From an uncultured Candidatus Marinamargulisbacteria bacterium (GTDB lineage: Bacteria; Margulisbacteria; Marinamargulisbacteria; CAYINU01): 52,247 bases of DNA. Location of the stretch: positions 23,110-75,356 of the forward strand of contig CAYINU010000001.1 of the NCBI GenBank assembly GCA_964364855.1, given 5' to 3'. The notes below the pieces were generated by a model, which did no database searches, had not been told where the DNA came from, and saw nothing but the letters and a program-made list of their open reading frames with translations. Position numbers and translations under genes: made by a program. Below, piece after piece: positions 1,659 to 31,130 of this stretch. Within the stretch, counting starts at the first letter, position 1. Each line of letters begins with the position of its first letter.

Positions 1659-3665
1659 TTAGCGGTGGGCGCGAATGGCGGATAAAATGGCGTCTGTCGT
1701 TAAGCCATATTGGACAGAAAGGTCCTTGGCCGGCGCGCTTTTTCCGAAGTGGTCGACGGTAAAGAGCAGGGGATCCCGGCCCGTCCATCGATGCCACCCA
1801 AAAGAAGACTGGGCTTCAATCACCACAAATTGTTTGGCGGTTGGAGGGATGGTTTGGGTTTGGTAGGCTGGTGGTTGCTGGAGGAATAATTCCCAACTCG
1901 GCATGGACACCACACGGACACGATATGTAGTGGCCAACCCGGTTGCGACCTCGGTGGCTAAGGCCAGCTCAGATCCGGTTGTCAGGATGCAGTAGTCGAT
2001 GTCGTTTCCGGATTCGCTCACTACGACATAGGCCCCTTTTTGCGTCCCGGCAATCGAGGTTGCGGACAAATCCTTAAGGTTTTGGCGAGACAAAATCAAC
2101 GCCGTAGGGCCAGGATTATGCAGGGCGGCAAGCCAGGCACCTTTGACTTCGTTGGCATCGCCGGGGCGGATGACCGTCAGATTGGGCATGGCCCGAAGAG
2201 ACGCCAAATGTTCTACCGGCTGGTGTGTCGGGCCATCTTCGCCCAACAAAATCGAGTCATGGGTAAATTGGTAAATTACCGGTAAATGCATCAGTGCAGC
2301 CAAGCGGATGGCGTTACGCATATAGTCCGAAAAGGTCAGAAAGGTTCCACAAAACGGACGAATCATGCCTTGCAGGGCAAGCCCGTTGGCAATGGTGCCC
2401 ATCGCAAATTCACGAACGCCATATTTGATGTTGCGACCAGCAAATTGACCGCGCGACACAACGCCGCCTTTTTTCATCCAAGTATTGTCCGAGCAGGATA
2501 GGTCGGCGGATCCGCTGATCAGATTGGGCAAGGTATCATGCAATACATCCAACACGCCTTGGGAGGATTTGCGCGTGGCGGCGTTGTCCGGAAGTTTGGC
2601 CTGAGCGACCGCTTCGGCAACAGAGACGGGGAGCTGACGGCCAAGGTAGCTGTCCCACTGCGCGGCCAACTCGGGATGTGCGGCTCGCCAGATGGCAAAA
2701 TCGGACTGCCAGTTGGCATACATGGCGGACTGTTCGGCGCGGCGATTTTTAAAATAAGACCGCACGGAGTCCGGTACAAAAAACAAGGGGGACTCCGGAA
2801 TGCCGTGGGCCGCTTTGGTCAGGGCCACTTCTTTGGCACCGAGGGCTTTTCCGTGGACTTCGCTGGTGCCTTGGTAGGTCGGAGATCCTTTTCCAATGGT
2901 GGTTTTGGCAATTATTAATACGGGCTGATTCCGGATGGTTTTTGCGGTTTGAATCGCCGTGTCGATGGCGTCAAAATCGTGGCCATTGATAGACAATACG
3001 TGCCAACCGTAGGCCATAAACCGTTGGCCGACATTTTCGGTAAAACATTCGGTGGTGGGTCCATCCAGACAGATAGCATTGGCATCATAAATAACGACCA
3101 GATTTCCCAGCCCCAGATGGCCGGCCAGAGATGCCGATTCGGCAGTGACGCCTTCCATCATGCAGCCGTCACCGGCAAGGACATAGACCGTTGGGTCCAG
3201 CAATCCGGTATTTTGCAAGTGAAAAGTGTCGCGAATAAGGTGGTTGCCTAGCGACATCCCCACGGCCATACCGACGCCTTGACCCAGGGGGCCCGTGGTG
3301 GCTTCGATCCCCGGGGCTTCGCCGTACTCCGGATGGCCGGCACAAGGCGAGTGCAGCTGCCGGAAACGTTGGATAGCAGATAAGGACAGATTAAAGCCCG
3401 AGAGATGCAGCGCACTGTAAAGCAGCATGGAGCCATGGCCGGCAGATAGGACAAAACGGTCGCGCGCTACCCAGTCCGGGTGTTTGGGATCGTGATTAAG
3501 TGCAACACCGTACAGATAGGCACCGATTTCAGCACAACCCAAGGGCAGCCCGGGGTGACCACTATTGGCGGCCTCGATGGCGTCCATCGACAATCCCCGA
3601 ATGGTGGCGGCAACGGCGGCGAGGTCTATTTTTTGTGTGGCTGATAGCGGCGCAGGCAAGCTCAT
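1659..3665 (-). CDS. tkt: Transketolase
   Basis: Motifs SGHPG, GDGCMMEG and the C-terminal transketolase domain. Start set at MSLPAPLSATQKID, because the longer track ORF would overlap the mazG 3' end. Confidence 0.9.
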   Translation of the reverse strand: MSLPAPLSATQKIDLAAVAATIRGLSMDAIEAANSGHPGLPLGCAEIGAYLYGVALNHDPKHPDWVARDRFVLSAGHGSMLLYSALHLSGFNLSLSAIQRFRQLHSPCAGHPEYGEAPGIEATTGPLGQGVGMAVGMSLGNHLIRDTFHLQNTGLLDPTVYVLAGDGCMMEGVTAESASLAGHLGLGNLVVIYDANAICLDGPTTECFTENVGQRFMAYGWHVLSINGHDFDAIDTAIQTAKTIRNQPVLIIAKTTIGKGSPTYQGTSEVHGKALGAKEVALTKAAHGIPESPLFFVPDSVRSYFKNRRAEQSAMYANWQSDFAIWRAAHPELAAQWDSYLGRQLPVSVAEAVAQAKLPDNAATRKSSQGVLDVLHDTLPNLISGSADLSCSDNTWMKKGGVVSRGQFAGRNIKYGVREFAMGTIANGLALQGMIRPFCGTFLTFSDYMRNAIRLAALMHLPVIYQFTHDSILLGEDGPTHQPVEHLASLRAMPNLTVIRPGDANEVKGAWLAALHNPGPTALILSRQNLKDLSATSIAGTQKGAYVVVSESGNDIDYCILTTGSELALATEVATGLATTYRVRVVSMPSWELFLQQPPAYQTQTIPPTAKQFVVIEAQSSFGWHRWTGRDPLLFTVDHFGKSAPAKDLSVQYGLTTDAILSAIRAHR

Positions 3666-3694
3666 ACGAGCGCATCTTAACAAAAATGCAGCCT

Positions 3695-4465
3695 TTATCC
3701 AACGGCTCCCTTGGCATGGGTCCATAGGGTTTCCCACGCAGCCGGTGACAAGGCCGCGAGGTCTTGGTTTTGCCGCATGGCTTCGGCCTCCATCCATTCA
3801 AATCGCCGCATAAATTTCTGATTGCTTTTTCGCAGAGATTCCTCGGCATTAATGTTTAACTTTCGGCCCAAATTCACCGCTGCAAATAAGACGTCGCCCA
3901 TCTCGATCTCGGCTTGGCTGCTGTCATTTTGGTTGGCGGCAGCCGCTAGCTCGGCCAATTCCTCGGTGACTTTTTCTGCGGGACCTCGGATGTCTGCCGG
4001 GGCCCAATCAAATCCCAGCCTAGATACTCGTTTTTGAATTTTCTCTGCTTGCAGCAATGCTGGAAAATGCCGGGGAATAGAGGCCAAGACCGATCCCTCT
4101 TTTTCTGTTTTTTTAATCTGCTCCCAGTTGGTCCACACGTCATCCACGGATCCGACCTTGGTGTTGCCAAAGACATGGGGGTGGCGGCGGACCATTTTCT
4201 CCGCTACGCCACTGGCGATGTCGTCGAGTGTAAACCAAGACTGTTCCTGGGCCATCAGCCCCATCATCACGACATGCAGCAACAGATCGCCCAGCTCTTC
4301 GCGAATGGCCTCCCGGTCATGACGCTCAATGGCATCCACCAGTTCATACGCTTCCTCGATGATATAGGGAGTTAGACTTTGAAAGGTTTGGGCTTTGTCC
4401 CAGGGGCATCCGTTGGGGCCACGTAATGCTTGGACTATTTCAACTAATTTTTGATGCCCAGTCAT
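3695..4465 (-). CDS. mazG: Nucleoside triphosphate pyrophosphohydrolase MazG
   Basis: Tandem MazG domains, with CPWDKAQT and EEAYELVDAI...GDLLLHV motifs. Confidence 0.85.
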   Translation of the reverse strand: MTGHQKLVEIVQALRGPNGCPWDKAQTFQSLTPYIIEEAYELVDAIERHDREAIREELGDLLLHVVMMGLMAQEQSWFTLDDIASGVAEKMVRRHPHVFGNTKVGSVDDVWTNWEQIKKTEKEGSVLASIPRHFPALLQAEKIQKRVSRLGFDWAPADIRGPAEKVTEELAELAAAANQNDSSQAEIEMGDVLFAAVNLGRKLNINAEESLRKSNQKFMRRFEWMEAEAMRQNQDLAALSPAAWETLWTHAKGAVG

Positions 4466-8050: not shown

Positions 8051-10546
8051 ATGATGGAGGGATTTGTCTTGATGCAATGTGCACATTGTTGTTCGGCTAT
8101 TGCGCCGGACGCGGCCCGAGAAGATGGGGGGCATGTGTTTTGTTGTGCGGGCTGTCTGACCGTTTACCAGTTGCTGCACACTTCGAATTTGGCGGATTAC
8201 TACACCATTCGGGAGCGGACGGAAGGGGGCCACTCATTTTTACCGCCTTTACCCGCTGCCCCTGCCGCCGATTTTTTGTATTTGGATGATCCTGCCATCG
8301 AGGTAGGTCGGTCGGGTGGTGACCGATATTTGGATTTTTATGTTGAGGGGATCCAGTGTACGGCATGTGTGTGGCTGTTAGAGTCTCTTGATCGGCTGTG
8401 TCCTGACGTTGCGCAGTCCAGGTTTCGGTCGGGACTCTCGGTATTGCGGCTGTTTTTGAGCCCGACCGGACGATTTTCGGCTGCTGCTGCAACCATGATG
8501 CGCCTGGGGTATCGGCCTCATCCGGTGACTTCATCGGCGCAAGCCAGCCAGTTGCAAGCGGAAGAAAATCGGCGGGAGCTGATACGCGTCGCGATTGCGG
8601 GTGCCTGTGCGGGAAACATGATGCTCTTTTCCGTGGCTTTGTATGCGGGCGCCACGGGACAGGCGGCTCAGATTTTTTTGTGGGCCATCTTGCTTTTGGC
8701 CATTCCCGTTATGGGGTACTGTGCCATTCCCTTTTATAAAAGTGCATGGGCGGCGGCAGGTTTTGATTTTCACGCTCAGCAAAAGCTTCGCGGTCGCCGC
8801 CGTGCGGTTTGTTTTGATTTTCACGCTCAGCAAAAGCTTCGCGGTCGCCGCCGTGCGGCTCCTCGGCGTCGGATGTCGGTGGATGTGCCCATCGTGGCGG
8901 CGTTGGGTATCGGAGTGATCGCTGGGATTCGGGCGACGGTTTTGGGTCAGCACAGCTATTTCGATTCGCTGGCGATGCTGATTTTTTTGTTATTGGCCAG
9001 TCGTTACGGGTTGCGCCGTATCCATCAATCCCATCTACAGGACACAACAACGTCTGGATTTCTGGTGCCGCCGATGGCCAAAAGGCGGATGCCAGACGGC
9101 ACACTGGCCCCAGTCTCGGTTGCTACTCTACAGCCCGGAGACGACATGCTTGTTGAACCCGGAGAGGTTTTTGCTGCGGACGGTGTGTTGGTCGAGGGAA
9201 CGACGGCTGCCAACTGTGCCGCGATGACCGGAGAGTCTTACCCCCAACAGCTGCAAGTGGGCGCATCCGTCTATGCGGGGACGGTCAATTTGGTCGATAC
9301 CGTGGTTATTCGGGTGTCGGCAGTGGGCGAGAAAAGCCGAATGGGACAGTTGCTGGCCGGGATTTTGTCCTACCCAAAATCTAAGATCGAAACGCTGGCA
9401 GATCGATGGGCCATGCGGGTGTTGGGAATGGTCATGGTAGTTGCAGTGATTTTGTTTCTTGCCCTGGGAGTGTTCGGGCACTGGGAAGAGGGATTTCGTC
9501 GGGCGCTGGCCTTGGTGATTATCACGTGTCCTTGTGCATCGGCCATTGCCACACCGCTGGCCTTTTCGTTGGGGCTTAACGCCTGCCGACGTCGGGGTAT
9601 TTTGGTCAAAGGCGGTGACGTCTTAGAGCGAATGGAATCCGTCAAACATATTATCTTAGACAAAACGGGAACCGTTACACAGGGTGATTTTATCGTGACG
9701 AATTGGCCCAAGACACTCACGGACCAGAACGATCTGAGATCCATTGCGGCACTCGAATCGCGGTCGATGCATCCGGTGAGCCACGCGATCCGACGCTATA
9801 TTTTGATTTCTACACTCGGCACTGTGGACCTCCTTGGCAGTGTGGACCCCTTGCCGGACGTAGACGATTTTGCAGAGAAAATTGGCTGGGGAGTATTGGG
9901 TAGTGTAAACGGACATCGGTATCAAATTGGAAAATCAACTACTCAGACATCCCAAAGTGAGACCACTATTTCTGTATGGAAAGATGGAGTGTGGTTGGGC
10001 GATGTGGTATTGGGAGATGCCATTCGTGCCGAGTCCAAGGACAGTGTGGACGCGCTTCGCAAAAAAGGATTTGAGATCACGTTATTGTCGGGAGATCGAC
10101 GGGACGTTGTGGAACGAGTTGGGCGTGAGCTGGGACTGACGCCGAAACAATGCCTGTCGGATCAAACTCCCGAACTCAAATTAGCCTATATCCAATCCCA
10201 TCCGGCTGCGTTAATGGTGGGGGATGGCGCTAACGATGCGGCGGCATTGTCTCGTGCTGAGGTGGGGGTGGCGGTTCATGGTAGTGTCGAAGTCAGTATG
10301 CAGGTGGCCGATGTCTATGTAGCCAGTCCGGGCATTTCTCCCGTGGTGACGCTTCTGACGGTGGCAGGGACAACCATGCGTTGTGTGCGTCGCAATCTGG
10401 TCGCGTCTGCCCTGTACAATGGAGTGGGCATCTCGTTGGCATTGGTAGGTTGGATGTCGCCGCTGGGTGCGGCATTGTTGATGCCATTCAGTTCAGTCAC
10501 TGTATTGTCCGTCGCTCTGGTGACGTTTCGCAGATGGAGATCCTAG
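8051..10546 (+). CDS. ccoI: Copper-translocating P1B-type ATPase, CcoI/FixI-like, with a 34-aa repeat insertion
   Basis: N-terminal CAHCC...FCCAGC metal-binding region, CPC transmembrane motif (ITCPCASA), DKTGTVT phosphorylation site, SMHPVSHAI and GDGANDAAAL. Followed by ccoS and ccoNOQP. Start taken at ATGATG (MMEGFV); the track ORF begins at a TTG at 8039. Confidence 0.85.
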   Translation: MMEGFVLMQCAHCCSAIAPDAAREDGGHVFCCAGCLTVYQLLHTSNLADYYTIRERTEGGHSFLPPLPAAPAADFLYLDDPAIEVGRSGGDRYLDFYVEGIQCTACVWLLESLDRLCPDVAQSRFRSGLSVLRLFLSPTGRFSAAAATMMRLGYRPHPVTSSAQASQLQAEENRRELIRVAIAGACAGNMMLFSVALYAGATGQAAQIFLWAILLLAIPVMGYCAIPFYKSAWAAAGFDFHAQQKLRGRRRAVCFDFHAQQKLRGRRRAAPRRRMSVDVPIVAALGIGVIAGIRATVLGQHSYFDSLAMLIFLLLASRYGLRRIHQSHLQDTTTSGFLVPPMAKRRMPDGTLAPVSVATLQPGDDMLVEPGEVFAADGVLVEGTTAANCAAMTGESYPQQLQVGASVYAGTVNLVDTVVIRVSAVGEKSRMGQLLAGILSYPKSKIETLADRWAMRVLGMVMVVAVILFLALGVFGHWEEGFRRALALVIITCPCASAIATPLAFSLGLNACRRRGILVKGGDVLERMESVKHIILDKTGTVTQGDFIVTNWPKTLTDQNDLRSIAALESRSMHPVSHAIRRYILISTLGTVDLLGSVDPLPDVDDFAEKIGWGVLGSVNGHRYQIGKSTTQTSQSETTISVWKDGVWLGDVVLGDAIRAESKDSVDALRKKGFEITLLSGDRRDVVERVGRELGLTPKQCLSDQTPELKLAYIQSHPAALMVGDGANDAAALSRAEVGVAVHGSVEVSMQVADVYVASPGISPVVTLLTVAGTTMRCVRRNLVASALYNGVGISLALVGWMSPLGAALLMPFSSVTVLSVALVTFRRWRS
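8762..8863. repeat. 51-bp tandem direct repeat, 2 near-identical copies, in frame within ccoI
   Basis: TTTTGATTTTCACGCTCAGCAAAAGCTTCGCGGTCGCCGCCGTGCGG plus a 4-nt joint occurs at 8762-8812 and 8813-8863. It encodes FDFHAQQKLRGRRRA twice. It belongs to the same family as 21600-21752. Confidence 0.9.
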
Positions 10547-10728: not shown

Positions 10729-10778
10729 CCCCTTACGCTCAAAGGTTGAGTTTTGTCCTTGGCAAACTCAGTAAGGGG
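10729..10778 (+). promoter_or_regulatory. Interrupted inverted repeat in the ccoN leader that can pair with the Shine-Dalgarno sequence
   Basis: CCCCTTAC(10729-36) and TGAGTTT(10747-53) are complementary to the contiguous AAACTCAGTAAGGGG(10764-78). That stretch contains the AAGGGG SD, 8 nt before the ATG at 10787. An alternative small hairpin, CTCAA-AGG-TTGAG, competes for the same TTGAG. Confidence 0.3.
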
Positions 10779-10786
10779 TGCCTGGT

Positions 10787-12922
10787 ATGAGTCATACGGT
10801 GCGCGTCCGCGGCGAAGAATCGTTTTTTAGTTTTGACAATCACATTGTCCGACTGTTTGCACTGGCCACCATGTTTTGGGGATTCGTGGGGATCTTGTTG
10901 GGGGTCGCGATTGCACTGCAGTTGGCGCATTGGCCTTTCAATTTTGATACCTCTTGGATCACATTTGGCCGGCTTCGGCCTTTGCATACCAATGCCACCA
11001 TTTTTGCTTTTGCCGGCAATGCCATTTTTATGGGGATCTACCATTCCACCCAACGGTTACTCAAAACGCGGATGGCCTCCGATGTACTGAGTCGCCTGCA
11101 TTTTTGGGGATGGCAATTGGTGATTGTCGTTGCCGCCATTACGCTTCCATTGGGGATTACGACCGGCAAAGAATATGCCGAACTGGAATGGCCCATCGAC
11201 ATTTTGATCACGGTTGTCTGGGTGATATTTGCCATCAACTTTTTTTGGACGCTGATTAAACGGCGCGAAAAGCACATCTACGTGGCAATTTGGTTTTATA
11301 TTGCGACTATCGTTACCGTGGCGCTGTTGCATATCGTCAACTCGATGGAACTGCCCGTCACGTTGCTAAAAAGCTATTCGATGTATGCCGGCGTGTCCGA
11401 TGCGCTCGTTCAATGGTGGTATGGTCACAACGCAGTGGCTTTTTTTCTGACGACCCCATTTTTGGGTCTGATGTATTACTACGTGCCCAAAGCCATCAAT
11501 CGTCCGATTTATAGCTATCGCCTCTCCATCATTCATTTTTGGTCGTTGGTCTTTATTTATATTTGGGCGGGGCCTCACCATTTACTGTACACCACGTTGC
11601 CAGATTGGGCGCAGACCTTTGGCATGGTGTTTAGCATCATGCTGATCGCACCGAGCTGGGGAGGCATGATCAACGGACTGTTGACGATGCGAGGGGCATG
11701 GGACCGCGTCCGAAAAGATCCCGTACTCAAGATGATGGTGCTGGCATTGACGTGTTACGGGATGGCAACTTTCGAAGGGCCGTTGCTCTCAATCAAGTCG
11801 GTGAATGCACTGGCCCATTTTTCGGATTGGATCATCGGTCACGTTCACATTGGCACCTTGGGTTGGAACGGATTTCTGATCTTCGCCATTTTGTATTACG
11901 TTGTTCCCAAGCTGTGGCGTACTCCCCTTTACAGCGAAAAATTGGCCAATGTCCACTTTTGGATCGGGACGGTGGGCATTGTGTTTTATGTCGTGAGCAT
12001 GTGGACGTCCGGCATCACACAGGGTTTGATGTTGCGCGCGATATCCGGTGGACAGTTGCTCTATCCCGACTTTATGGAAACCGTCGTCCGTATTCAGCCT
12101 TTGTACTACATTCGTGCCTTGGGCGGGATAATGTATCTGATCGGATTTCTCATCATGGTCTATAACCTGGCCAGGACTATTAAAGCTGGTGTGGTTGCGG
12201 ATGAAACGGTCCGCGCCGTTTCCAACGTCGGAGAGCCGCAAGACATGAGCGACAATGCGTTTCACCGCAACATCGAAGGGATGCCTGTCTTTTTTGCCGT
12301 GTTGACCGTGGGGGCAGTATTGGTCGGAAGTATTGTCGAAATAGTGCCATCGTTAACAGCGCATGTGTATGTCAAACCCCCGGCACGCTATCAGCCCTAT
12401 ACGCCTCTCGAATTGACCGGACGCGATATCTATATCCGGGAGGGATGCTATACCTGTCACTCTCAGATGGTCCGTCCGTTGGTGGCTGACCAATTGCGTT
12501 ACGGTGAACGTTCTCATGTCGAAGAAAGTTATTACGACCATCCCTTCCAATGGGGATCTCGTCGAACCGGACCCGATTTGGCTCGCATTGGCGGTAAGTA
12601 TCCTGACCTTTGGCATTTTCGGCATATGCGAAATCCCCGAGACACTACCCCAAAGTCGATCATGCCGAACTATCCTTGGCTTTACGAGCAAAAATGGGAT
12701 CCGCAACTCTTGGCTAAAAAATTGGTGGTTATGCGACGCCTGGGGGTCCCCTACGGTGAGAGTGACATATCAGACGGCATGCAAAATGCCCAATATCAGG
12801 CTGGGGAAGTCACACAGAAACTGCAACAACAGGGGGCTCACGACGCCAAACCGGATCGGGAGATCATTGCGTTAATTGCCTATTTGCAGCGGCTCAACTA
12901 TCCCAAGGAGGACGTCCAATGA
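10787..12922 (+). CDS. ccoNO: Fused cbb3-type cytochrome c oxidase subunits I and II (CcoN-CcoO fusion)
   Basis: The N-terminal 470 aa or so is a 12-plus TM heme-copper oxidase domain. The C-terminal part has the CcoO signature YTPLELTGRDIYIREGCYTCHSQMVRP...GPDLARIGGKY...HMRNPRDTTPKSIMPNYPWL with one CxxCH. Confidence 0.9.
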   Translation: MSHTVRVRGEESFFSFDNHIVRLFALATMFWGFVGILLGVAIALQLAHWPFNFDTSWITFGRLRPLHTNATIFAFAGNAIFMGIYHSTQRLLKTRMASDVLSRLHFWGWQLVIVVAAITLPLGITTGKEYAELEWPIDILITVVWVIFAINFFWTLIKRREKHIYVAIWFYIATIVTVALLHIVNSMELPVTLLKSYSMYAGVSDALVQWWYGHNAVAFFLTTPFLGLMYYYVPKAINRPIYSYRLSIIHFWSLVFIYIWAGPHHLLYTTLPDWAQTFGMVFSIMLIAPSWGGMINGLLTMRGAWDRVRKDPVLKMMVLALTCYGMATFEGPLLSIKSVNALAHFSDWIIGHVHIGTLGWNGFLIFAILYYVVPKLWRTPLYSEKLANVHFWIGTVGIVFYVVSMWTSGITQGLMLRAISGGQLLYPDFMETVVRIQPLYYIRALGGIMYLIGFLIMVYNLARTIKAGVVADETVRAVSNVGEPQDMSDNAFHRNIEGMPVFFAVLTVGAVLVGSIVEIVPSLTAHVYVKPPARYQPYTPLELTGRDIYIREGCYTCHSQMVRPLVADQLRYGERSHVEESYYDHPFQWGSRRTGPDLARIGGKYPDLWHFRHMRNPRDTTPKSIMPNYPWLYEQKWDPQLLAKKLVVMRRLGVPYGESDISDGMQNAQYQAGEVTQKLQQQGAHDAKPDREIIALIAYLQRLNYPKEDVQ

Positions 12923-18144: not shown

Positions 18145-20301
18145 CTACAGAGGTTCTTTAAAAAATGTGTGGTTATTTTCGGCCATTTCAACCAACAGAG
18201 AGGCGGGTTCGAAACGCCGCCCATAGCGTTCGGATAGCTTCTGCAGGCGCTCGGTAATAATGGTCATGCTGGTTTGGTCTGCGTACCGGCAAAGACCACC
18301 GCGAAACGGCGGGAATCCCGTGCCCATGATCATGGCCATGTCCAGTTCTGCCGGACCGGCGACAACGTGTTCGGCCAGACACCGTGCGGCCTCGTTGACC
18401 ATTATCAGCACCATGCGGTCCAAGCAATCATCCATTGAGGGGCGCGTTCCCGATTCGCGGCGATGGGCTTTTTGCCAGTCGGATACTGCTTTAAGCAATT
18501 CCGAGTTAGGGACTTTGGTGCCATGGCCATGGACGTAAAACCCCTTTCCGGATTTTTTCCCCAGCCAGTCCTTGTTTTCATGTAATTGCGTAAATATCGC
18601 AGGTACGGCCATGCGTTGTCCGTAGCCGGCCTCCAGGGATACGGCGACTTTGTAACCCACATCCAGCCCCACTTCATCAGCCAAAGCCAGCGGCCCGATG
18701 GGCATGCCAAATTGGGTCATCAGCCGATCCAGTGTCAACATATCCACACCTTCTTCGAGTAAATGGACTGCCTCGTTAACATAGGGAATCAAAATCCGGT
18801 TTACCAAAAAACCGGGCACATTTTTGACCCTGATCGGTGTTTTTTTCATCTGGCGGGCCAATTGCATGGTGGCTTCTACCACGCCGGGATCGGTTTTGTC
18901 CCCCGGTATCACCTCCACCAAGGGCATGCGGTGCACGGGGCTGAAAAAATGCATGCCCACAAACCGTTCCGGCCGGTTGAGCGCAGCGGCCATTTCCGTA
19001 ATCGACAATGAGGACGTGTTGGAGGCGATAATGGTGTCCGGCCTCACCACCTGTTCGAGCTCGGCAAGCGTGCCTTTTTTTACCGCCATGTTTTCCACAA
19101 TGGCTTCGATGACGATATCTGCCAAACCAAAGCCGCTGTAATCGAGTGTGCCAGAAATATGGTTAAACTTGAGCAGCGCCTCAGGCGGGGAGAGTTTTTT
19201 CCTCTCCACCCCTTTTTGGTACAAATTTTCAGCGGCAGCCAATCCGCGCCCCACATTTTCCCAATTGAGGTCTTTGAGCCGTACGTCTAGTTCGGCATTG
19301 CTCAGTGCCCAGGCAATCCCTCCGCCCATCAAACCGGCTCCCAACACAGCCGAGTGGGTTAACGGCCACGGTTTCGGCGATACGTGCGATGGCTTTTTGA
19401 GTTGTTCTTGCACAAAGAACAAATGGGTCAGATTTTGACATATTTTTGAAATGACCAGATCGGCAAAGGCTTTGGCCTCAACGGCCAGTCCTTTTTGCAG
19501 GGGAATGCCGTAGGTGGATTTCACGACGGCCAAGGCTTTTAGCGGTGCGGGGTAGTGGCCTTGGGTTTTTTGCCTGACTTGCTGGTGGGCGATGCGGGAG
19601 ACGATTTCCCGTCCGGCGGGGTTGGATTCTAAAAATCGCGTCGATATCGGACGTGCATGACGGGAGGCCAGTACTTTTTTGCGGCCGGTCTCTGAATGAA
19701 TATGTTGGATAAATTTGCGAGTCAGGTCCGCCAAAAATCCTTGAGGGTATAAGGCATCGGCCAGGTGCAAACGCAGGGCTTTTTTGGCGTTTATCGCTTG
19801 GCCGGTCAAGATCAATTCCAGCGCCGCTTGAAACCCGATCAGTTTGGGTAGGCGCTGCGTACCACCAAAACCTGGTAAGATGCCCAGATTGACCTCGGGT
19901 AGGCCCAGTTGCACCTTGGGGCCATCTGACACGATGCGATAAGTACATGCCAGAGCCAACTCCAACCCACCCCCCAAACATGGCCCATCAATAACCGCTA
20001 CGGTGGGATAGGGCAGCTCGGCCAATTGATTGAAAATAGTCTGGCCCATACTGGATTTGAATTGGCCTTCTTCGTGGGTGCGGATGGATTGAATCTCCGT
20101 GATGTCTGCGCCCGCAATAAATTGATTGGGTTTGCCACTGGAAATAACCAAGGCCTGCAGGGGTTTTTGAGACAGGATGTTTAGTAGATCGGATAACTCG
20201 GCCATCACCGATGAGGACAGCACATTGACCTTTTTGTCCGGCACGTCGATGTGCAACAGTCCGATCTCATCCGGTGTGGTTTCAAACGTCCATGTGGACA
20301 T
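18145..20301 (-). CDS. fadB: Fatty-acid oxidation complex alpha subunit (enoyl-CoA hydratase / 3-hydroxyacyl-CoA dehydrogenase)
   Basis: N-terminal crotonase fold (FIAGADI, GGGLELALAC) and a central NAD site (VLGAGLMGGGIA). Start at MSTWTFE overlaps the fadA stop by 1 nt (TAATG). Confidence 0.9.
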   Translation of the reverse strand: MSTWTFETTPDEIGLLHIDVPDKKVNVLSSSVMAELSDLLNILSQKPLQALVISSGKPNQFIAGADITEIQSIRTHEEGQFKSSMGQTIFNQLAELPYPTVAVIDGPCLGGGLELALACTYRIVSDGPKVQLGLPEVNLGILPGFGGTQRLPKLIGFQAALELILTGQAINAKKALRLHLADALYPQGFLADLTRKFIQHIHSETGRKKVLASRHARPISTRFLESNPAGREIVSRIAHQQVRQKTQGHYPAPLKALAVVKSTYGIPLQKGLAVEAKAFADLVISKICQNLTHLFFVQEQLKKPSHVSPKPWPLTHSAVLGAGLMGGGIAWALSNAELDVRLKDLNWENVGRGLAAAENLYQKGVERKKLSPPEALLKFNHISGTLDYSGFGLADIVIEAIVENMAVKKGTLAELEQVVRPDTIIASNTSSLSITEMAAALNRPERFVGMHFFSPVHRMPLVEVIPGDKTDPGVVEATMQLARQMKKTPIRVKNVPGFLVNRILIPYVNEAVHLLEEGVDMLTLDRLMTQFGMPIGPLALADEVGLDVGYKVAVSLEAGYGQRMAVPAIFTQLHENKDWLGKKSGKGFYVHGHGTKVPNSELLKAVSDWQKAHRRESGTRPSMDDCLDRMVLIMVNEAARCLAEHVVAGPAELDMAMIMGTGFPPFRGGLCRYADQTSMTIITERLQKLSERYGRRFEPASLLVEMAENNHTFFKEPL

Positions 20302-21590
20302 TACGTGGCCTCCACAACAAAGGCCGCACCTTGTCCGCCACCCACGCACAATGTTGCCAGTCCCACCTGCTTGCCCGCGCGATGCAATTCTTTGGCCAGC
20401 GTAATCAGCAGGCGCGATCCCGTGGTGCCCACCGGATGGCCCAGGGCAATGGCGCCACCGTTCACATTGAGGATGTCCATATTTAAAGTCCCAAGTGGAG
20501 TGGATTGATTGAGGTGGGTTTTGGCAAATTCGGCGGAGCCAAAGGCTTTCTCACATGCCAAGATCTGCGCAGCAAAAGCCTCGTTTATTTCAATGCGCTC
20601 AAAATCTGACAGTTTCATGCCCGTTTTTTGCAGGACCTTGGCAGTCGCGTATAGAGGTCCAAGTCCCATTCGGCTAGGATCCAAACCTGCATAGGCATAG
20701 GCCCGTAAAAAGGCCAGTGGCTTGTATCCCATCGCTTTGGCTTGAGATTCTTTCATGACCACCATTGCGGCAGCACCATCGGTGATGGGACAACTATTTC
20801 CTACCGTGACCGTGCCGTTTTTGCGGTCAAAATAGGGAGGTAATTTGGCTAGTGCTTCCATCGTCTGATTTTCTCGAGGACCTTCGTCTTCGCGCAGGAT
20901 CGCTTTAAAATCAGGGGGGATCGGAAAGGGCATCATTTCTTCTTGCAAGATACCGGCCTTGGTTGCCGCAATGGCCTTTTGGTGGCTCTTTAGAGCATAG
21001 TCGTCCTGCTGGATGCGGGTAATATGAAACTCTCGAGCCAAAATCTCAGCGGTCATACCCATAATCAATCCGCACACGGGATCGGTTAGCCCTTGGATGA
21101 CGCCCACGACGGGCTTTAAAAACCGCAACCGAAAACCGGCCAGCACCCGCAATTTGTCACTGGTCGTTTTGGCCCGCCACAGCCGTTCGTAAAAAGCAGT
21201 CATCTCCGGGCCAAAAATCAAGGGAATATTCGACATCGATTCGGTGCCTCCGATCAGCATGATCTGGGCTTCGCCCGCGTGAATTTTATTCATGGCCGTG
21301 GACACAGACTCCATCCCGGAAGCGCAGTTGCGGTGGACGGTGGCAGCTGGAACAGTTTGCGGCAAACCGGCCTTCAGCGTAATCACACGGGCGATATTGG
21401 CCGCATGGACCGGCTGGGCGACATTGCCTATGACGACTTCGTCAATTTGGTTGCCTTTGAGACCCGTGCGAATCAATACTTCACGTACGACGACCGCGCC
21501 CAGGTCATCGGCTTGAACGGTTTTTAATTTGCCGCCGGCCTTAGAAAAGGGCGTTCGTAAACCATCGATGATGGCAATGCGTTCGTTCAT
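20301..21590 (-). CDS. fadA: Acetyl-CoA C-acyltransferase (3-ketoacyl-CoA thiolase)
   Basis: Active-site contexts NCASGMES, NVNGGAIALGHPVGTTG and CVGGGQGAA. Confidence 0.9.
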   Translation of the reverse strand: MNERIAIIDGLRTPFSKAGGKLKTVQADDLGAVVVREVLIRTGLKGNQIDEVVIGNVAQPVHAANIARVITLKAGLPQTVPAATVHRNCASGMESVSTAMNKIHAGEAQIMLIGGTESMSNIPLIFGPEMTAFYERLWRAKTTSDKLRVLAGFRLRFLKPVVGVIQGLTDPVCGLIMGMTAEILAREFHITRIQQDDYALKSHQKAIAATKAGILQEEMMPFPIPPDFKAILREDEGPRENQTMEALAKLPPYFDRKNGTVTVGNSCPITDGAAAMVVMKESQAKAMGYKPLAFLRAYAYAGLDPSRMGLGPLYATAKVLQKTGMKLSDFERIEINEAFAAQILACEKAFGSAEFAKTHLNQSTPLGTLNMDILNVNGGAIALGHPVGTTGSRLLITLAKELHRAGKQVGLATLCVGGGQGAAFVVEAT

Positions 21591-23548
21591 GGGGCCTCCT
21601 TTTGATTTCTACGCTCGGCAATGGCCTCGCGGTCGCCGCCGTGCGGCTCCTTTTGATTTCTACGCTCGGGAAAGCCCTCGCGGTCGCCGCCGTGCGGCTC
21701 CTTTTGATTTTTACGCTCGGTGATGACCTCGCGGTCGGCGCTGTGCGGCTCCTCGGTGGTGTACATGGATTCGATTTCGGGTTCGTAGCGTTCGGAGATC
21801 TGTTTTCGCTTTAATTTTAGCGTGGGTGTCAATAATCCGTCTTCGATGGAAAACTCGGCAGGCAGTAGCACAAATTTCTTTATTTTTTCAAATTCGGCCA
21901 ATGGAGTTCCCTCTTTTTTTAAGAGGTCGGTAAACAGCCGGATCACCGCGGGATCACGGACCATCTTTTCGGGGGCAGACACGGTAATGCCTTTTCGCCT
22001 CAGGTATCGTTGCACCCAGTCCATCTGAGGTACAATCAGGGCTGTTATGTAATTGCGTTTTTCACCGATGACGTCGACTTGAGCAATGTAGGGACTGTTT
22101 TTGTAAGTTTCTTCGACGACCAAAGGAGCCACTTTTTTGCCGTTGGACAACACGATGATTTCTTTTTTGCGGTCGATAATGCGGATAAACCCTTCCGAAT
22201 CCATCTCGGCGATGTCGCCGGTGTGTAGCCACCCATCAGGATCGATGGCGATCTGGGTTTGACGGTCTCGATGGTAATAGCCCTGCATGATATTGGGTCC
22301 TCGGGCCAGCAGCTCCCCATCATCTGCCACTTTTACCGAGACGCTGGGCAGTGCTTTGCCGACTGTGCCGAATCGATAGGACTTCAAGCGGTTACAGGCA
22401 ATTACCGGTGCGGATTCTGTCATGCCGTATCCTTCGATGACCAACAATCCCATGGCATGGAAAAATTCGGCCAACTCTTTGGATAAGGCTGCACCGCCCG
22501 ACACAAAAAAGCGGATGCGGCCGCCCGTGCGACTTTGGACCTTTTTAAAGGCCAGTCGGTCCGCAATTCGAAACTGGAACCGCAACCAAAATGGCGGGGT
22601 TTTCTCGTTTTTTAAGGCGTTCTGATAAGCAACTCCTACCCGCTGGGCCCAGTCAAAAATGGGTTTTTGAAACGGGCTAAGGTTTTCCAGCAACCGCTGG
22701 CGGATTTTTTCAAAAAGACGGGGTACGCAGATCAAAATGGTAGGCCGGACCTCCTGGAGATTTTCCACCAGTTTTTCTTGGGATTCGGCGTAATAAATAC
22801 TGGCCCCGCAGCCAATGGCTGTGTAATAGCCGACCGTGCGCTCAAAGACATGAGATAACGGCAAAAACGAGACGAGGGAGTCTGCATCGGAAAGCGGGGT
22901 AATGGCCAACAAATCCCGGACGTTGCTCATAAAATTGCCGTGGGTGAGCATGACGCCTTTCGGGCTGCCGGTGGTACCGGACGTGTATACGATGCTGGCG
23001 AGGGTGTCCGGCGTGACGGCGGACAGCGCCTGGCGCACGGCGTCTCGGACATGGGGGCTTTCATGCTTGCCCTCGGTGCGCAATTGTCGAAATCGGTAAA
23101 TAGGCAGCGGACAGTCGGGAACGTCCGGACTTTCGTGGAATAAAATAATGCCTTTTAAAGTCGGACATTCACCGGCCAGGGCGTTAACGGTTTGCAGCTG
23201 CTCGGTCGTTTCGACGGCGAGCATTGTGCTTTCGCTGTCGTTAATAATGTAGGCAATTTCAGCTTCGGACATGGTGGGGTAAATGGGTACATCCGCTGCT
23301 CCCAAACTCAGGACCGCAAAGTCCATCATGGCCCATTCGGGACAGTTGTGGGACCAGATCGCGATATGGTGATTCCCGCGCATTCCGATACGGTACAGGG
23401 ATGCGGCGACATGGAGGACGTCTTCCCAAAAATGGGGGTAGCTAACGGGATGGTAAATCCCATTTTTTTTGGACGCCACAACACATTTGTGTGCGTAGCG
23501 TTGCGCCTGCGCCTCAAAAAGGGCGGTTAATGTTGTGGGGGCCTGCAT
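21587..23548 (-). CDS. fadD: Long-chain fatty-acid-CoA ligase (AMP-binding) with a repeat-encoded C-terminal tail
   Basis: YTSGTTGSPKGVMLTH AMP-binding motif and GYGMTE. The last 50 aa or so (EPHSADREVITERKNQK EPHGGDREGFPERRNQK EPHGGDREAIAERRNQK EAP) are encoded by the 51-bp repeats. The stop overlaps the fadA ATG (ATGA). Confidence 0.85.
   Translation of the reverse strand: MQAPTTLTALFEAQAQRYAHKCVVASKKNGIYHPVSYPHFWEDVLHVAASLYRIGMRGNHHIAIWSHNCPEWAMMDFAVLSLGAADVPIYPTMSEAEIAYIINDSESTMLAVETTEQLQTVNALAGECPTLKGIILFHESPDVPDCPLPIYRFRQLRTEGKHESPHVRDAVRQALSAVTPDTLASIVYTSGTTGSPKGVMLTHGNFMSNVRDLLAITPLSDADSLVSFLPLSHVFERTVGYYTAIGCGASIYYAESQEKLVENLQEVRPTILICVPRLFEKIRQRLLENLSPFQKPIFDWAQRVGVAYQNALKNEKTPPFWLRFQFRIADRLAFKKVQSRTGGRIRFFVSGGAALSKELAEFFHAMGLLVIEGYGMTESAPVIACNRLKSYRFGTVGKALPSVSVKVADDGELLARGPNIMQGYYHRDRQTQIAIDPDGWLHTGDIAEMDSEGFIRIIDRKKEIIVLSNGKKVAPLVVEETYKNSPYIAQVDVIGEKRNYITALIVPQMDWVQRYLRRKGITVSAPEKMVRDPAVIRLFTDLLKKEGTPLAEFEKIKKFVLLPAEFSIEDGLLTPTLKLKRKQISERYEPEIESMYTTEEPHSADREVITERKNQKEPHGGDREGFPERRNQKEPHGGDREAIAERRNQKEAP
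21600..21752. repeat. 51-bp tandem direct repeat, 3 copies, same family as 8762-8863
   Basis: Units lie at 21600-21650, 21651-21701 and 21702-21752 (TTTTGATTTCTACGCTCGG..N..CCTCGCGGTCGCCGCCGTGCGGCTCC); the third copy is more diverged. The plus-strand orientation is the same as at the ccoI locus, but here the coding strand is minus. Confidence 0.9.
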
Positions 23549-23555
23549 AGGACCA

Positions 23556-23834
23556 TCATACTTCTTTTTTGTCTGTTGTGGTGCCCGTGGCTTTTTCCGG
23601 TGTGCTGGGACTTTCAGGGGCCTCAGGGGCCTTGGCGGTGCTGGCGCTACTACCGGCGTTACTGTCGGTCACGTAAAATCCGGAACCCTTGAAATTGATC
23701 AGTACATTGCGGCTGATCAACCGTTTCACGGGCCCCTTGCAGGCCGGGCATTCGGTGAGCACGGGCTCGGTCATACCCTGCTGGGCTTCAAAATGATGGT
23801 GACAACGGTCACAGCGATATTCATAAATAGGCAT
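23556..23834 (-). CDS. FmdB-family zinc-ribbon protein
   Basis: MPIYEYRCDRCHHHFE...CPACKG is the CxxC...CxxC zinc ribbon typical of the FmdB family, followed by a low-complexity Ser/Ala/Thr/Pro tail. The start overlaps the upstream stop by 1 nt. Confidence 0.75.
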   Translation of the reverse strand: MPIYEYRCDRCHHHFEAQQGMTEPVLTECPACKGPVKRLISRNVLINFKGSGFYVTDSNAGSSASTAKAPEAPESPSTPEKATGTTTDKKEV

Positions 23835-26560
23835 TAGTTGCCTCCTTCCCATTGTTTGATGAGGCTTTCGATTTCCTGGATGGCCTCGCCAAATGCGACC
23901 CAGCTGGCCGTTTTGGCGGATTGTTTGAGGCGTTTAAATTCGGTGGCAATCATTTCCCAGATCATGTCGTTTTCCGGTTTAATATGATCCGTTTCAGCGG
24001 GATTGGCCGGTGTTCCACGAAACACGCGTGAGATGGCTTCGTTAAGGGTTTCTTCCATCACAACTTGGTCATTGTAGGCAAAGACGACGCGTTTGAGTTC
24101 CGGCAGTTTACTCTGAATGGCCTGCAGATAGATGGGTTCCACATAGATCAGGGCATCCTCGATAGGAATAACCATAAGGTTGCCACGGATCACACGAGAA
24201 CCAACCTGACTCCACAACGTAAAATGTTGCGAAATTTCGGTGTCCTGGTCAATACGGGATTCGATTTGCATGGGGCCAAAGACGGTTTTTTCTTTGGGGA
24301 ACCGAAACACCGTCAACTTGCCATAGTCGGCACCATCGCAATTGGCGCTCATCCACGCGATCATGTTGTTTTTATCAGTCGGGGTGAATGGCATCATCAG
24401 CATAAACGACTCCCTCGGATCGTGGGGCAAACGGCTCACGATGTAGTAAGCCGCCATCGTCTGCTGGCCCTTTTCACTGGTTTCTTGAGGCAAGGCCCAG
24501 ACATCTTCACGGTTGTAAAATACCTGTGGGTCCTGCATGTGGTAGGTGCAATACATGGATACCTGTCGGGTGAACAGATCTCGGGGGTAGCGCATGTGGC
24601 TTTTAATGGATGCCGGCATATCGTCTGCTGGCCGGAAAAGGCGAGGGAAAATGCGTTTGTAGGTGGCAATAATGGGGTCTTTCGGATCGGTCACATAGAA
24701 TCGCACCGTACCGTTGTAAGCATCGATGGTGGCCTTAACTGAATTTCGGATATAGTTTATGCCGTCGGTATCCGGCTCCGAATACGGATAGGTGGAGCTG
24801 GTCGTATACGCATCTATCATCCACACCAAACGACCCTGATCCGTAATCACCAAATAGGGGTCCGAATCAAAGGTTAAAAACGGTGCCAGGGCCTGCAGCA
24901 GTTCAGTAACGGTGCGGTTCATCAACAGCCGGCTGTTTCGGGTGATCTGCGGGCTGATCAGCAGATTGATATCCCGCAATTTGAGGGCGAATAGTAGGCG
25001 CTTGTAATACCGGTCGATCAAAATGCCGCCCCTGCCGTTATATTGCGTATAGACATTGTTGTTGCCCTTGGGGTAGTCAAATTCTTCTTCGTGGGTATTC
25101 ACAATGGCGTAGTCGCTAGCCTTTTCGCCGAAATAAATTTCGGGCCGGGTGATGACGGCATCAATGGCCGACACCGGGGGCAGGTCTTTGATATAAAACT
25201 TTGGCAGTCCTTCCGGCGTGACTTCGTTTACCGGAGACATGCATACCCCATAGCCGTGGGTATAAACCAGATGCCGGTTTAGCCAAGTCTGTGCCTGGTC
25301 GCTGAGACGTGACGTGTTGAGTTCGCGCACCGATAGCATGACCTGCCGGAGCTTCCCATCCACCATGTATCGGTCCACATCGATGCCGGGGAATTCGTAA
25401 TACAGTCTGATTTCCTGTAGCTGGCTAAAAGTCTGTTTGAGCGGTACTTCATCCCAGAGCCGAACATTGTCCAGGGTAGTCTGGTTGTTGCGAATGTCTG
25501 CGTACGTTAGATTGGTTTTGGCGGGGAATTCGATTTCTTTGACATGGTGCAGGTTGAATCCCTGACGGGTGAATCGAATGTTGTGCCGGATATAGGGCCG
25601 TTCTTTGGCCAGCTCGTTGGGGTCAACGACATAACTTTGGACAATTCCCGGATAGACGCGAACAGCACCCACATAGACCACCAAAGTCACCAAGAAAAGG
25701 TAAACCACTCTGATGGCAGAAACCTTCGATACGCCGACGACCACGCAGCTCAGGGCAAGAAACGCCAACAAGCCTGCTGCCAGCAGATAGCCCCATTGGG
25801 TGACATGCGCGTCGACATAGCCAGCCCCGAATAGCACCGTATTGGGATTAAATAGGAGACCGAATGGCTTAAGCCACGTTCCGAATGACCAGATGGCAAA
25901 TAGTGCCGCCAGCAGGATCATGAGATGGGTTTTCAAACCGCTGATTTTCTGATGCGGCCAGACGATATAGATCAGGATGCGGCGGTAGGCATAGGTGAGT
26001 CCGGTCAACAACAGCGTCAGGATTACCAGGGCCAATAGCCAATAATATACAAAACGCAAAAACGGCAAAGTAAACACATAAAATCCCAGGTCTTTTCCAA
26101 AAATAGGATCGGTTTGTCCAAAGGGAACCTGGTGCCAGCATTTGGCAATCGTATCCCATTGCGAGACGGCCGCGTTGGCCAATATCAACGCGCCGCCCAA
26201 CGTGACAGACCACGTGAGGACATTAAAAAAGCGCAGCGACGTCGTGGCGCGCGTGCGGCTGAAGTTGGATAACAGCTGGACGATTAGCTGTGCCACCACC
26301 GACCTGGGCGGCTCGGAGGTTACCCATTCCGTAGGGTCCGAGACCGCCCGTGCGATGCGGACATTGCCCCAAAGCACCCCAAAGGCGAGGGCAAAAAAGG
26401 TGGCAAAAACGCCGGTCTGCCACGTGATAGCGCGTACCCAAGTTGCCCGGTATCCCAGCGATGAAAACCATAGCACGTCCGGGTAAACCTGCAAAATCAG
26501 ATACAGCGGCACGCCCAATAGCAGCGCCAAAATCAGCAGTCGAACCAATGGCCGTTTCAT
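23834..26560 (-). CDS. UPF0182-family large integral membrane protein
   Basis: 908 aa. Seven N-terminal TM helices or so, beginning LYLILQVYPDVLWFSSLGY, and a large extracytoplasmic C-terminal region. Size and layout are typical of UPF0182 (COG1615). Confidence 0.75.
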   Translation of the reverse strand: MKRPLVRLLILALLLGVPLYLILQVYPDVLWFSSLGYRATWVRAITWQTGVFATFFALAFGVLWGNVRIARAVSDPTEWVTSEPPRSVVAQLIVQLLSNFSRTRATTSLRFFNVLTWSVTLGGALILANAAVSQWDTIAKCWHQVPFGQTDPIFGKDLGFYVFTLPFLRFVYYWLLALVILTLLLTGLTYAYRRILIYIVWPHQKISGLKTHLMILLAALFAIWSFGTWLKPFGLLFNPNTVLFGAGYVDAHVTQWGYLLAAGLLAFLALSCVVVGVSKVSAIRVVYLFLVTLVVYVGAVRVYPGIVQSYVVDPNELAKERPYIRHNIRFTRQGFNLHHVKEIEFPAKTNLTYADIRNNQTTLDNVRLWDEVPLKQTFSQLQEIRLYYEFPGIDVDRYMVDGKLRQVMLSVRELNTSRLSDQAQTWLNRHLVYTHGYGVCMSPVNEVTPEGLPKFYIKDLPPVSAIDAVITRPEIYFGEKASDYAIVNTHEEEFDYPKGNNNVYTQYNGRGGILIDRYYKRLLFALKLRDINLLISPQITRNSRLLMNRTVTELLQALAPFLTFDSDPYLVITDQGRLVWMIDAYTTSSTYPYSEPDTDGINYIRNSVKATIDAYNGTVRFYVTDPKDPIIATYKRIFPRLFRPADDMPASIKSHMRYPRDLFTRQVSMYCTYHMQDPQVFYNREDVWALPQETSEKGQQTMAAYYIVSRLPHDPRESFMLMMPFTPTDKNNMIAWMSANCDGADYGKLTVFRFPKEKTVFGPMQIESRIDQDTEISQHFTLWSQVGSRVIRGNLMVIPIEDALIYVEPIYLQAIQSKLPELKRVVFAYNDQVVMEETLNEAISRVFRGTPANPAETDHIKPENDMIWEMIATEFKRLKQSAKTASWVAFGEAIQEIESLIKQWEGGN

Positions 26561-30601: not shown

Positions 30602-30631
30602 GTCAGAAACTACAATGTCAGAAACTACAAA
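30602..30631. repeat. 15-bp tandem duplication GTCAGAAACTACAA(T/A), 2 copies
   Basis: Read directly from the sequence. It lies just downstream of a G8 tract (30595-30602) and upstream of the lipoprotein signal peptide. Confidence 0.8.
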
Positions 30632-30653
30632 AAGAAGCGAAAAACCGAGGAAA

Positions 30654-31130
30654 ATGATGCGCAAAATAAAAATGACTATGTTTGGAATTATTGCAATTGT
30701 GGGGTTAGTCGCGCTAGGTATGACTGGGTGTGGAAAAGTAACCGAATCGACAGTTGAAACGCCGGTAGTTGAAACATCTCCAGACCTATCGAGGACGGTA
30801 ACAAATGGCGCGTTTTCATATACTTTGAGTGTATCGACCCCTAATGCTAATAGCAATTTAACCCTGACGATAAAACCAACCGATACGGCAACGCCGTTTC
30901 GCTATGCTTTTCTGGCAACGCGTACGTCCGGGACCGGGACGATTACCTATGACAATTCGTTTACCGCTGGGGGCAATCTGTCTTTAGGGTATTTCAATTT
31001 TACCGGGCAGAAAGAAATAGCGTTGAACTTTTCTACAATGGGTAGCGTTTACGCAATTGGGATCACGGTTCAAAACAGCGCCGGTACGACCACGCTATCC
31101 AGCGCGACCCTCAATGTGACGGTTCAATAG
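30654..31130 (+). CDS. Small putative lipoprotein (Thr/Ser-rich, probably beta-rich)
   Basis: MMRKIKMTMFGIIAIVGLVALGMTGCGK is a signal peptide with a lipobox (LGMTGC). A GAGGA SD precedes the ATGATG at 30654/30657. I recognise no homolog. Confidence 0.6.
   Translation: MMRKIKMTMFGIIAIVGLVALGMTGCGKVTESTVETPVVETSPDLSRTVTNGAFSYTLSVSTPNANSNLTLTIKPTDTATPFRYAFLATRTSGTGTITYDNSFTAGGNLSLGYFNFTGQKEIALNFSTMGSVYAIGITVQNSAGTTTLSSATLNVTVQ

Follow-up and report, generated by a model that had tools for sequence, protein, structure and literature searches.

A 52,247-nt stretch of DNA from an uncultured Candidatus Marinamargulisbacteria bacterium (contig CAYINU010000001.1, positions 23,110 to 75,356), referred to here as the window, carries a 51-bp repeat that has entered protein-coding genes in frame, including ccoI (fixI), which encodes a P1B-type copper ATPase. 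We consider it likely, with a probability of about 0.7, that this repeat is a lineage-restricted, non-autonomous interspersed minisatellite element. New copies arrive as whole 51-nt quanta, without target-site duplication at the one site for which an empty allele is available, and insertions have continued over a long time. In about 65 kb of the organism that was read, four loci are known, three in the window (8761-8862, 9801-9851, and 21596-21752) and one on other contigs (L006, L011, and L012), with array sizes of 1, 1.7, 2, and 3 units. All known copies lie in protein-coding DNA and, of the unit's four stop-free frames, make use of three.

Every unit consists of a 47-nt core and a 4-nt linker. 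In ccoI, a 51-bp period was detected by Tandem Repeats Finder at 8760-8858 (1.9 copies, 100% matches, score 198), and the array is laid out as core 8761-8807, linker TTTG 8808-8811, core 8812-8858, and linker CTCC 8859-8862. The boundary is ambiguous by one T, and the interval given for two in-frame units in the initial annotation (8762-8863) is equally valid. The same annotation had pointed to the repeat family at 21600-21752, with the DNA oriented alike and translated from the other strand. This was found as well, with a period of 51 at 21596-21753 (3.1 copies, 90% matches); on the plus strand, CTCC is followed by three successive core-plus-CTCC units. With up to 3 mismatches allowed, the 19-nt core CGCGGTCGCCGCCGTGCGG occurred 5 times in the window versus 0.06 expected, and none of 100 shuffles equaled 5. 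A profile search of the window with the unit (nhmmer) gave no further strong copy beyond the arrays. The remark that both strands are open comes down to four stop-free frames out of six, which is not statistically remarkable: by our estimate, four or more open frames are not unusual for a 17-codon unit (P of ~0.24).

In the ccoI frame, the two units are read as FDFHAQQKLRGRRRAVC and FDFHAQQKLRGRRRAAP, flanked by FYKSAWAAAG and RRRMSVDVPIVAALG. The closest ortholog, P0002 (encoded on JGI contig L001), is 84-89% identical and lacks exactly these 34 residues. In an alignment of 81 sequences, the 34 insert columns were empty in all 80 others (P0002 and 79 homologues), and the segment from FYKSA to SVDVP was 17 amino acids long in 80 of 80 homologues versus 51 in the CcoI of the window. 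Deleting 8761-8862 yields ...KSAWAAAGRRRMSVD..., which is residue-for-residue colinear with ...KSALAAVRRRRMSVD... of the relative; the excised protein of the window reads AWAAAGRRRM and that of the relative ALAAVRRRRM. When the filled site was compared with the empty allele in L001, nothing was duplicated at the junction, that is, no target-site duplication was present. The ortholog comparison therefore bears out the proposal that the segment was inserted into ccoI, and it shows the event to be a recent, clean 102-nt insertion.

The arrays were recovered in identical form from independent assemblies (ENA ERZ1292631, ENA ERZ1292636, and JGI 3300045072). Contig L002 (ENA ERZ1292631, Hainich aquifer well H32) contains identical ccoI DNA with two units, and the three-unit synthetase gene recurs on L009 and, with one residue changed outside the array, on the P0243 contig. 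JGI sample 3300045072 holds both the element-bearing population (L012, whose protein is identical to the Hainich one) and the relative with the empty ccoI site (L001).

The second array lies in the C-terminal tail of a long-chain acyl-CoA synthetase, between the conserved end ..IESMYTTEE and the last two codons (AP-stop), and is translated as ...MYTTEEPHSADREVITERKNQKEPHGGDREGFPERRNQKEPHGGDREAIAERRNQKEAP-stop. Homologues of the synthetase (best identity, 52%) all stop 0-20 residues past IxxMY, that is, without the tail. On the minus strand, the array ends with AAAAGGAGGCCCCATGA, in which the thiolase gene has its Shine-Dalgarno site and its overlapping start. The last unit ends with AAAAGGAGG four bases upstream of the ATGA overlap, against the ribosome-binding site of the thiolase (21587-21600). 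Hypothetical removal of 153 nt leaves ...ACCACCGA joined to GGAGGCCCCATGA, that is, TTEEAP-stop, a GGAGG Shine-Dalgarno sequence, and the overlapping thiolase ATG. With the AAAAGGAG end of the unit placed against the thiolase Shine-Dalgarno sequence, the hairpins of the unit could act as an intercistronic mRNA element.

A further, degraded copy is located downstream in ccoI. The relative keeps a nearly complete unit at L001:1681-1731 (E value, 1.4e-10; nhmmer with a profile of six units), which is identical to the unit ACSL_a at 43 of 49 positions, CTCC linker included, and has the third-frame peptide ILISTLGDGLAVGTVCL. The copy in the window is shorter by 18 nt between two TCGGC direct repeats, and Tandem Repeats Finder gave a row with a period of 18 at 9818-9853. 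The corresponding loop measures 13-22 residues in homologues, 25 in the window, and 31 in P0002. Because the old copy is common to both lineages and the two-unit copy is absent from the relative, ccoI has received two independent insertions. On this comparison, the old copy is dated before the split from the 84-89% identical relative and the two-unit copy after it.

When the four open-frame peptides, concatenated, were used as the query in a protein word-index search, one more protein was obtained, P0121/P0244; the search did not return the window's own proteins and is not exhaustive. P0121 is labelled by NCBI as from a Candidatus Margulisiibacteriota metagenome-assembled genome (MAG), P0244 is a 476-aa hypothetical protein, and the C-terminus of P0121/P0244 reads ...AKEPHGGDREAIAERRNQKEPHGGDREAFADSSSGCCSVS. 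The locus lies outside the window, on a contig of the same aquifer, and three assemblies (L006, L011, and L012) carry it unchanged. The repeat, with its four loci, is indeed a dispersed family whose copies are read in more than one frame and on either strand. A subtype is set by the variable center of hairpin 2 (described below): ACSL_a, L006_a, and the old L001 copy form one, and the ccoI units and L006_b form another. Since subtypes recur across loci, the arrays are mosaics of family variants rather than purely local duplications. The variation observed comprises presence or absence between lineages at ccoI and indels within the old copy.

Each unit contains two G+C-rich hairpins followed by an A-rich tail that closes with AAAAGGAG. 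On the minus strand of the window, it consists of GGAG, hairpin 1 (GCCGC-ACG-GCGGC), GAC, hairpin 2 (CGC-GA-RGN-NNNN-NCY-GA-GCG), and TAGAAATCAAAA; the junction of successive units is AAAAGGAG, which resembles a Shine-Dalgarno sequence. Pairing was evaluated for eleven pairs in the seven distinct units. Standard pairs were found in 97.4% of the cells for the two hairpins, and 4 of the 11 pairs were altered on both sides, with changes between G-C and A-U and among C-G, G-C, and U-A in hairpin 2, and between C-G and G-C and between G-C and A-U in hairpin 1. The latter changes occur in the old L001 copy, in which hairpin 1 is retained through two compensatory pairs. None of 500 shuffles matched the observed pairing or covariation score, and pairing fell to 18-52% in a control in which the partners were slid by 1-3 columns. 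Because three different frames are used among the loci, the pairing cannot be put down to coding constraint. The folding energy of the whole unit was not significantly below that of shuffles (z of +0.4 to -1.9), and thus the case for the hairpins rests on covariation, not on stability. The internal loop of hairpin 2 has tandem G.A/A.G in the minus-strand version, and one unit has a G-U pair; these very few observations hint that the minus-strand version is the structured strand.

The flanks of the element are also alike. In the minus-strand sense, the 5' flanks all end in A (CCGA, CCAA, CCGA, and CGAA), giving A-GGAG across the boundary at 4 of 4 sites. The three loci of the window share one orientation, though their host genes lie on opposite strands, and GC skew is positive over nearly the entire window. 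A GTAG-like motif (CGTAG/CGTGA) adjoins hairpin 2 on its 3' side. The two ends of the unit, GGAGCCGCAC... and ...GAAATCAAAA, do not form an inverted repeat, and no terminal inverted repeats were present in the unit sequence.

A wider search for the core, as proposed in the initial annotation, gave further copies in the population and its relative but none in the GTDB, metagenome, viral, and plasmid collections. The pattern GATTTNNACGCTCNGNNNNNNNNTCGCGGTCG had no match in 185,579 GTDB species-representative genomes, and a second pattern (two cores 25-50 nt apart) had two, both unrelated high-GC repeats, in Solirubrobacterales and Streptomyces. In JGI metagenome contigs, GATTTNNACGCTCNGNNNNNNNNTCGCGGTCG gave three matches, all of them due to chance, with no repeat and no family flanks. 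This negative is weaker, as the scan missed L012, a 1.7-kb element-bearing JGI contig that the collection seems to lack. Short, repeat-broken contigs are apparently under-represented, and the census is therefore a lower bound. No match to the element was found in IMG/VR or in a phage collection, and the single 29-nt match in a plasmid collection was due to chance. Rfam recognized two tRNAs only in the window and nothing at the array. A HMMER search of 1.84 billion protein representatives with the PHGGDRE-frame peptide returned P0121 only. About 3.6 kb past the window ends and L011, from short Hainich contigs, gave no new copies. Judged from these sequence collections, no carrier of the element is known other than one uncultured groundwater bacterium and a relative.

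For a non-autonomous element of this kind, the two hairpins would be recognized by a mobilizing or copying machinery, probably on single-stranded DNA, with the enzyme supplied in trans. Because of the hairpins, the lack of target duplication, the common flank, and the uniform orientation, our leading guess is an HUH/Y1 enzyme of the RAYT (REP-associated tyrosine transposase; REP, repetitive extragenic palindrome) or IS200/IS605 TnpA type. Arrays may grow by re-insertion beside an existing unit together with slippage or recombination, and the surviving insertions would be only those that keep the frame in tolerant surface loops or C-terminal tails. A bolder proposal, which we regard as speculative and rather doubtful, is that of an active, self-targeting, hairpin-guided mobile minisatellite whose 17-codon length and four open frames are adapted to coding DNA in a gene-dense genome, which is moved in 51-nt quanta by an unrecognized enzyme, and which repeatedly donates new peptide segments, such as the +8 stretch that follows the chaperone-docking platform of the copper pump, as well as ribosome-binding/hairpin modules at operon junctions.

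Several observations weigh against an interspersed mobile element. No transposase or mobilizing gene was found in Pfam scans of ten open reading frames (ORFs) of the window. If single-stranded DNA at the replication fork were the substrate, the strand laid bare would carry T.C mismatches in hairpin 2 instead of the G.A version. Between the two ccoI units, the linker is CAAA and not GGAG, and no simple model accounts for CAAA. Copy number did not vary among the two or three assemblies per locus. No intergenic copy was seen; coding sequence makes up almost all of the window, and it was a protein search that gave the extra locus. The sample consists of no more than four loci and seven distinct units, so both the census and the A-GGAG flank consensus are weak.

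The most serious alternative is that no dedicated mobility exists and that rare illegitimate or microhomology-mediated recombination, or ectopic gene conversion from an existing array, placed copies whose number was then changed by replication slippage, with the hairpins kept by template-switch correction of quasi-palindromes rather than by selection. The absence of a transposase gene from the ten window ORFs scanned and of a target-site duplication at ccoI would agree with it. The empty ccoI site of the relative (GGCGGCAGTGCG) loosely resembles the 3' end of the unit (GCCGCCGTGCGG), the 18-nt loss between TCGGC direct repeats in the old copy is classic slippage, and the two ccoI cores are 100% identical, as local duplication predicts. 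However, every insertion consists of whole units bounded in the same way, at sites that are unrelated, whereas random recombination should leave ragged ends. The same subtypes occur at different loci, and both hairpins show compensatory changes, also in a copy within a host gene that has diverged by tens of percent. We consider this explanation unlikely. A far less probable reading takes the repeat for a functional protein module of 17 residues that was under selection as protein and came to be shared between proteins. The frame PHGGDREAxAERRNQKE is used in both the synthetase and P0121/P0244, and the basic frame of CcoI lies on an electropositive platform (PMC9433437), but the four loci make use of three frames and both strands, conservation is at the level of DNA and hairpins, the insert is predicted to be disordered, and the peptide is absent outside this population among the protein representatives searched. 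A protein repeat module was thus rejected, as three frames are used.

The initial annotation had named two findings that would speak against an insertion, an assembly artefact and an ancestral sequence without other genomic copies, and neither holds. The coverage of the MAG is low (~4-5x, from contig names), and assemblers can collapse or expand tandem repeats, but the arrays are not an assembly artefact because independent assemblies, made from different samples, carry identical ones. Moreover, arrays of 102 nt and 153 nt are short enough for reads to span or assemble, and the synthetase units differ from one another. An ancestral CcoI segment lost elsewhere is contradicted by its absence from all 80 homologues. 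Together, artefact and ancestry have the slightest probability of the explanations considered. Other classes of repeat or insertion were also examined: a CRISPR array was rejected since there are no spacers, an integron attC site on anatomy, and an intein or intron because the segment is too short and has no motifs.

MIRUs, the interspersed repetitive units of mycobacteria, are tandem units of 40-100 bp at dispersed operon junctions, with frames into the flanking genes and G+C-rich internal inverted repeats (Supply et al. 1997, summarised in PMC3184786). The 51-bp unit is within this size range and likewise forms direct tandem arrays at dispersed loci, has G+C-rich internal inverted repeats, and shows filled and empty sites between related lineages. 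The synthetase/thiolase array resembles MIRUs in its position at an operon junction with an ATGA overlap, whereas the two ccoI sites are gene-internal, and a unit deep inside the coding sequence of a conserved enzyme, twice in ccoI, is unlike MIRUs. There is also no sequence similarity, the host phylum is unrelated, and no match was found in the GTDB representatives, which should include mycobacterial species. Tetranucleotide direct repeats were absent at the one site with a known empty state. MIRUs vary in copy number between strains (VNTR behavior); here, the two lineages differ in having or lacking the ccoI insert, the old copy has indels, and copy number was the same in two to three assemblies per locus.

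Rickettsia palindromic elements (RPEs), to which the repeat had been likened in the initial annotation, insert in frame into housekeeping genes (Ogata et al. 2000, summarised in PMC10969869 and PMC3184786). The likeness holds for the insertion behavior: a small repeat is placed in frame in unrelated housekeeping genes, adds a peptide, leaves the host ORF intact, and occupies apparently tolerant surface positions. It does not extend to family membership. RPEs are ~105-150 bp long, single, and wholly palindromic, whereas this unit is 51 bp long, tandem, and has two local hairpins; RPEs have a conserved peptide, whereas three different frames are used here, and no sequence relationship exists. 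The tandem and operon-junction behavior is closer to that of MIRUs. The element thus belongs to neither MIRUs nor RPEs and combines behaviors of both.

Elements of the REP/BIME (bacterial interspersed mosaic element)-RAYT system and those derived from IS200/IS605 share with this unit conserved short G+C-rich hairpins, no target-site duplication, a consistent orientation, a short flank motif (A-GGAG here), a GTAG-like motif near the hairpin, and arrays. REPs, however, lie outside genes and usually form arrays of inverted pairs, whereas the 51-nt units stand head to tail in genes, with GTAG 3' of the hairpin and not 5'. Pneumococcal BOX, RUP, and SPRITE and enterobacterial ERIC (enterobacterial repetitive intergenic consensus) are small non-autonomous repeats in genes or extending their 3' ends (PMC3184786). 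[quoted passage not shown] A MITE was therefore ruled out, as terminal inverted repeats and target duplication are lacking.

In-frame fusion of small repeats to ORFs is already known. Entry of small repeats in frame into essential genes is best known from Rickettsia, and tandem units at operon junctions are best known from mycobacteria; here a single element does both, and its host is an uncultured groundwater lineage that carries the label Candidatus Margulisiibacteriota. Its interest lies in the insertion into a length-invariant segment of a P1B-ATPase, in the use of three frames, and in the hairpin covariation, which makes the mechanism of mobilization testable. The compensatory change in the hairpins and the absence of target duplication point to a copying mechanism that recognizes structure. 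Repeats of this kind probably break up the metagenome assemblies of the organism and could serve as strain markers.

The TGES, CPC, DKTGT, HP, GDGxND, YN, and MxxSS motifs of CcoI are all present on invariant or nearly invariant alignment columns, which agrees with the earlier statement that the catalytic motifs are intact. CcoI comprises the Pfam families ATPase-cat_bd, E1-E2_ATPase, and Hydrolase (PF12156, PF00122, and PF00702) and matches CopA structures in the PDB (E value, 1e-53). The phmmer alignment to Archaeoglobus fulgidus CopA (3J09) starts directly after the insert ('raaprrrmsvdv' versus 'SALRRRTLNMDV'). In an AlphaFold2 model (81 sequences; mean predicted local distance difference test [pLDDT] score, 86.2; predicted template modeling score, 0.83), helices 226-236 (platform) and 278-298 (M1) flank a low-confidence loop at 243-273. 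A pLDDT score below 50 was obtained only at residues 1-5, 59-62, 243-273 (the new insert), and 591-596 (the loop of the old insert). The alignment and the flanking helices agree with the earlier placement in the cytoplasmic platform region before the NMDVLIALG-type helix, and the insert site is the junction of the MB' platform helix and M1.

Between MB and M1 lies MB', an electropositive platform at which the copper chaperone is recruited, and a conserved methionine at the MB'-M1 transition belongs to the copper entry site (PMC9433437). In the CopA alignment, the insert ends ~9-10 residues before the Met of the NMDV motif, which by rough numbering would be the entry-site methionine. The 34 residues of the insert include 10 K/R and 2 D/E. 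Its net charge of +8 would suit a cytoplasmic loop beside an already basic surface, and the segment may lengthen the loop that follows the electropositive MB' platform on the cytoplasmic face. The initial annotation held that the pump is probably still functional with a basic 34-aa insert; the motifs, the intact ORF, and the basic composition agree, and the pump most likely still works, although its function is deduced from these features. The site thus amounts to a natural experiment in which the MB'/M1 junction by the copper entry site took 34 strongly basic residues while the rest of the fold is confidently predicted.

Coordinates of the repeat copies and their host genes (window positions unless a contig is named)
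Feature	Position	Strand	Remarks
ccoI/fixI, P1B-type copper ATPase	8051..10546 (ORF 8039/8051..10546)	+	Assigned from Pfam, neighbours, PDB matches, and AlphaFold2
Recent ccoI insertion	8761..8862	+	102 nt = two 51-bp units
Old degraded single unit	9801..9833	+	Variable loop of nucleotide-binding domain, third frame (ILISTLG...)
18-nt partial duplicate of the old unit's 3' end, or second-unit remnant	9834..9851	+	In both lineages
Thiolase	20301..21590	-	ATG overlaps synthetase stop (ATGA)
Long-chain acyl-CoA synthetase	21587..23548	-	PF00501, PF23562; array in C-terminal tail
Synthetase-tail array	21596..21752	-	Three 51-bp units + one extra GGAG
Further locus	L006:951-1041, L011:5814-5904, L012:1444-1534		Full unit + 36-nt partial, 87 nt, GGAG before

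The genes 3' of ccoI are ccoS, a fused ccoNO, a small ORF, and ccoP; ccoG lies beyond them. The fusion of ccoN and ccoO forms a 714-aa ORF (COX1 + FixO) at 10778-12922 and is also found in the relative. Elsewhere in the window, transketolase is encoded by a single 712-aa ORF (1659-3797), versus two genes (365 and 272 aa) on a 99.5% identical Hainich contig (L014:2319-4247); this split may reflect a frameshift at the strain level or a sequencing error due to low coverage. The UPF0182 protein at 23834-26560 is 908 aa long, and the Pfam model ends at 783, leaving an unexplained C-terminal extension of ~125 residues. A perfect 15-bp tandem repeat (GTCAGAAACTACAAT, 1.9 copies) at 30602-30630 runs across the start (30615) of ORF 30615..31130 and lies within a lower-GC stretch (0.47-0.50, ~30-36 kb).

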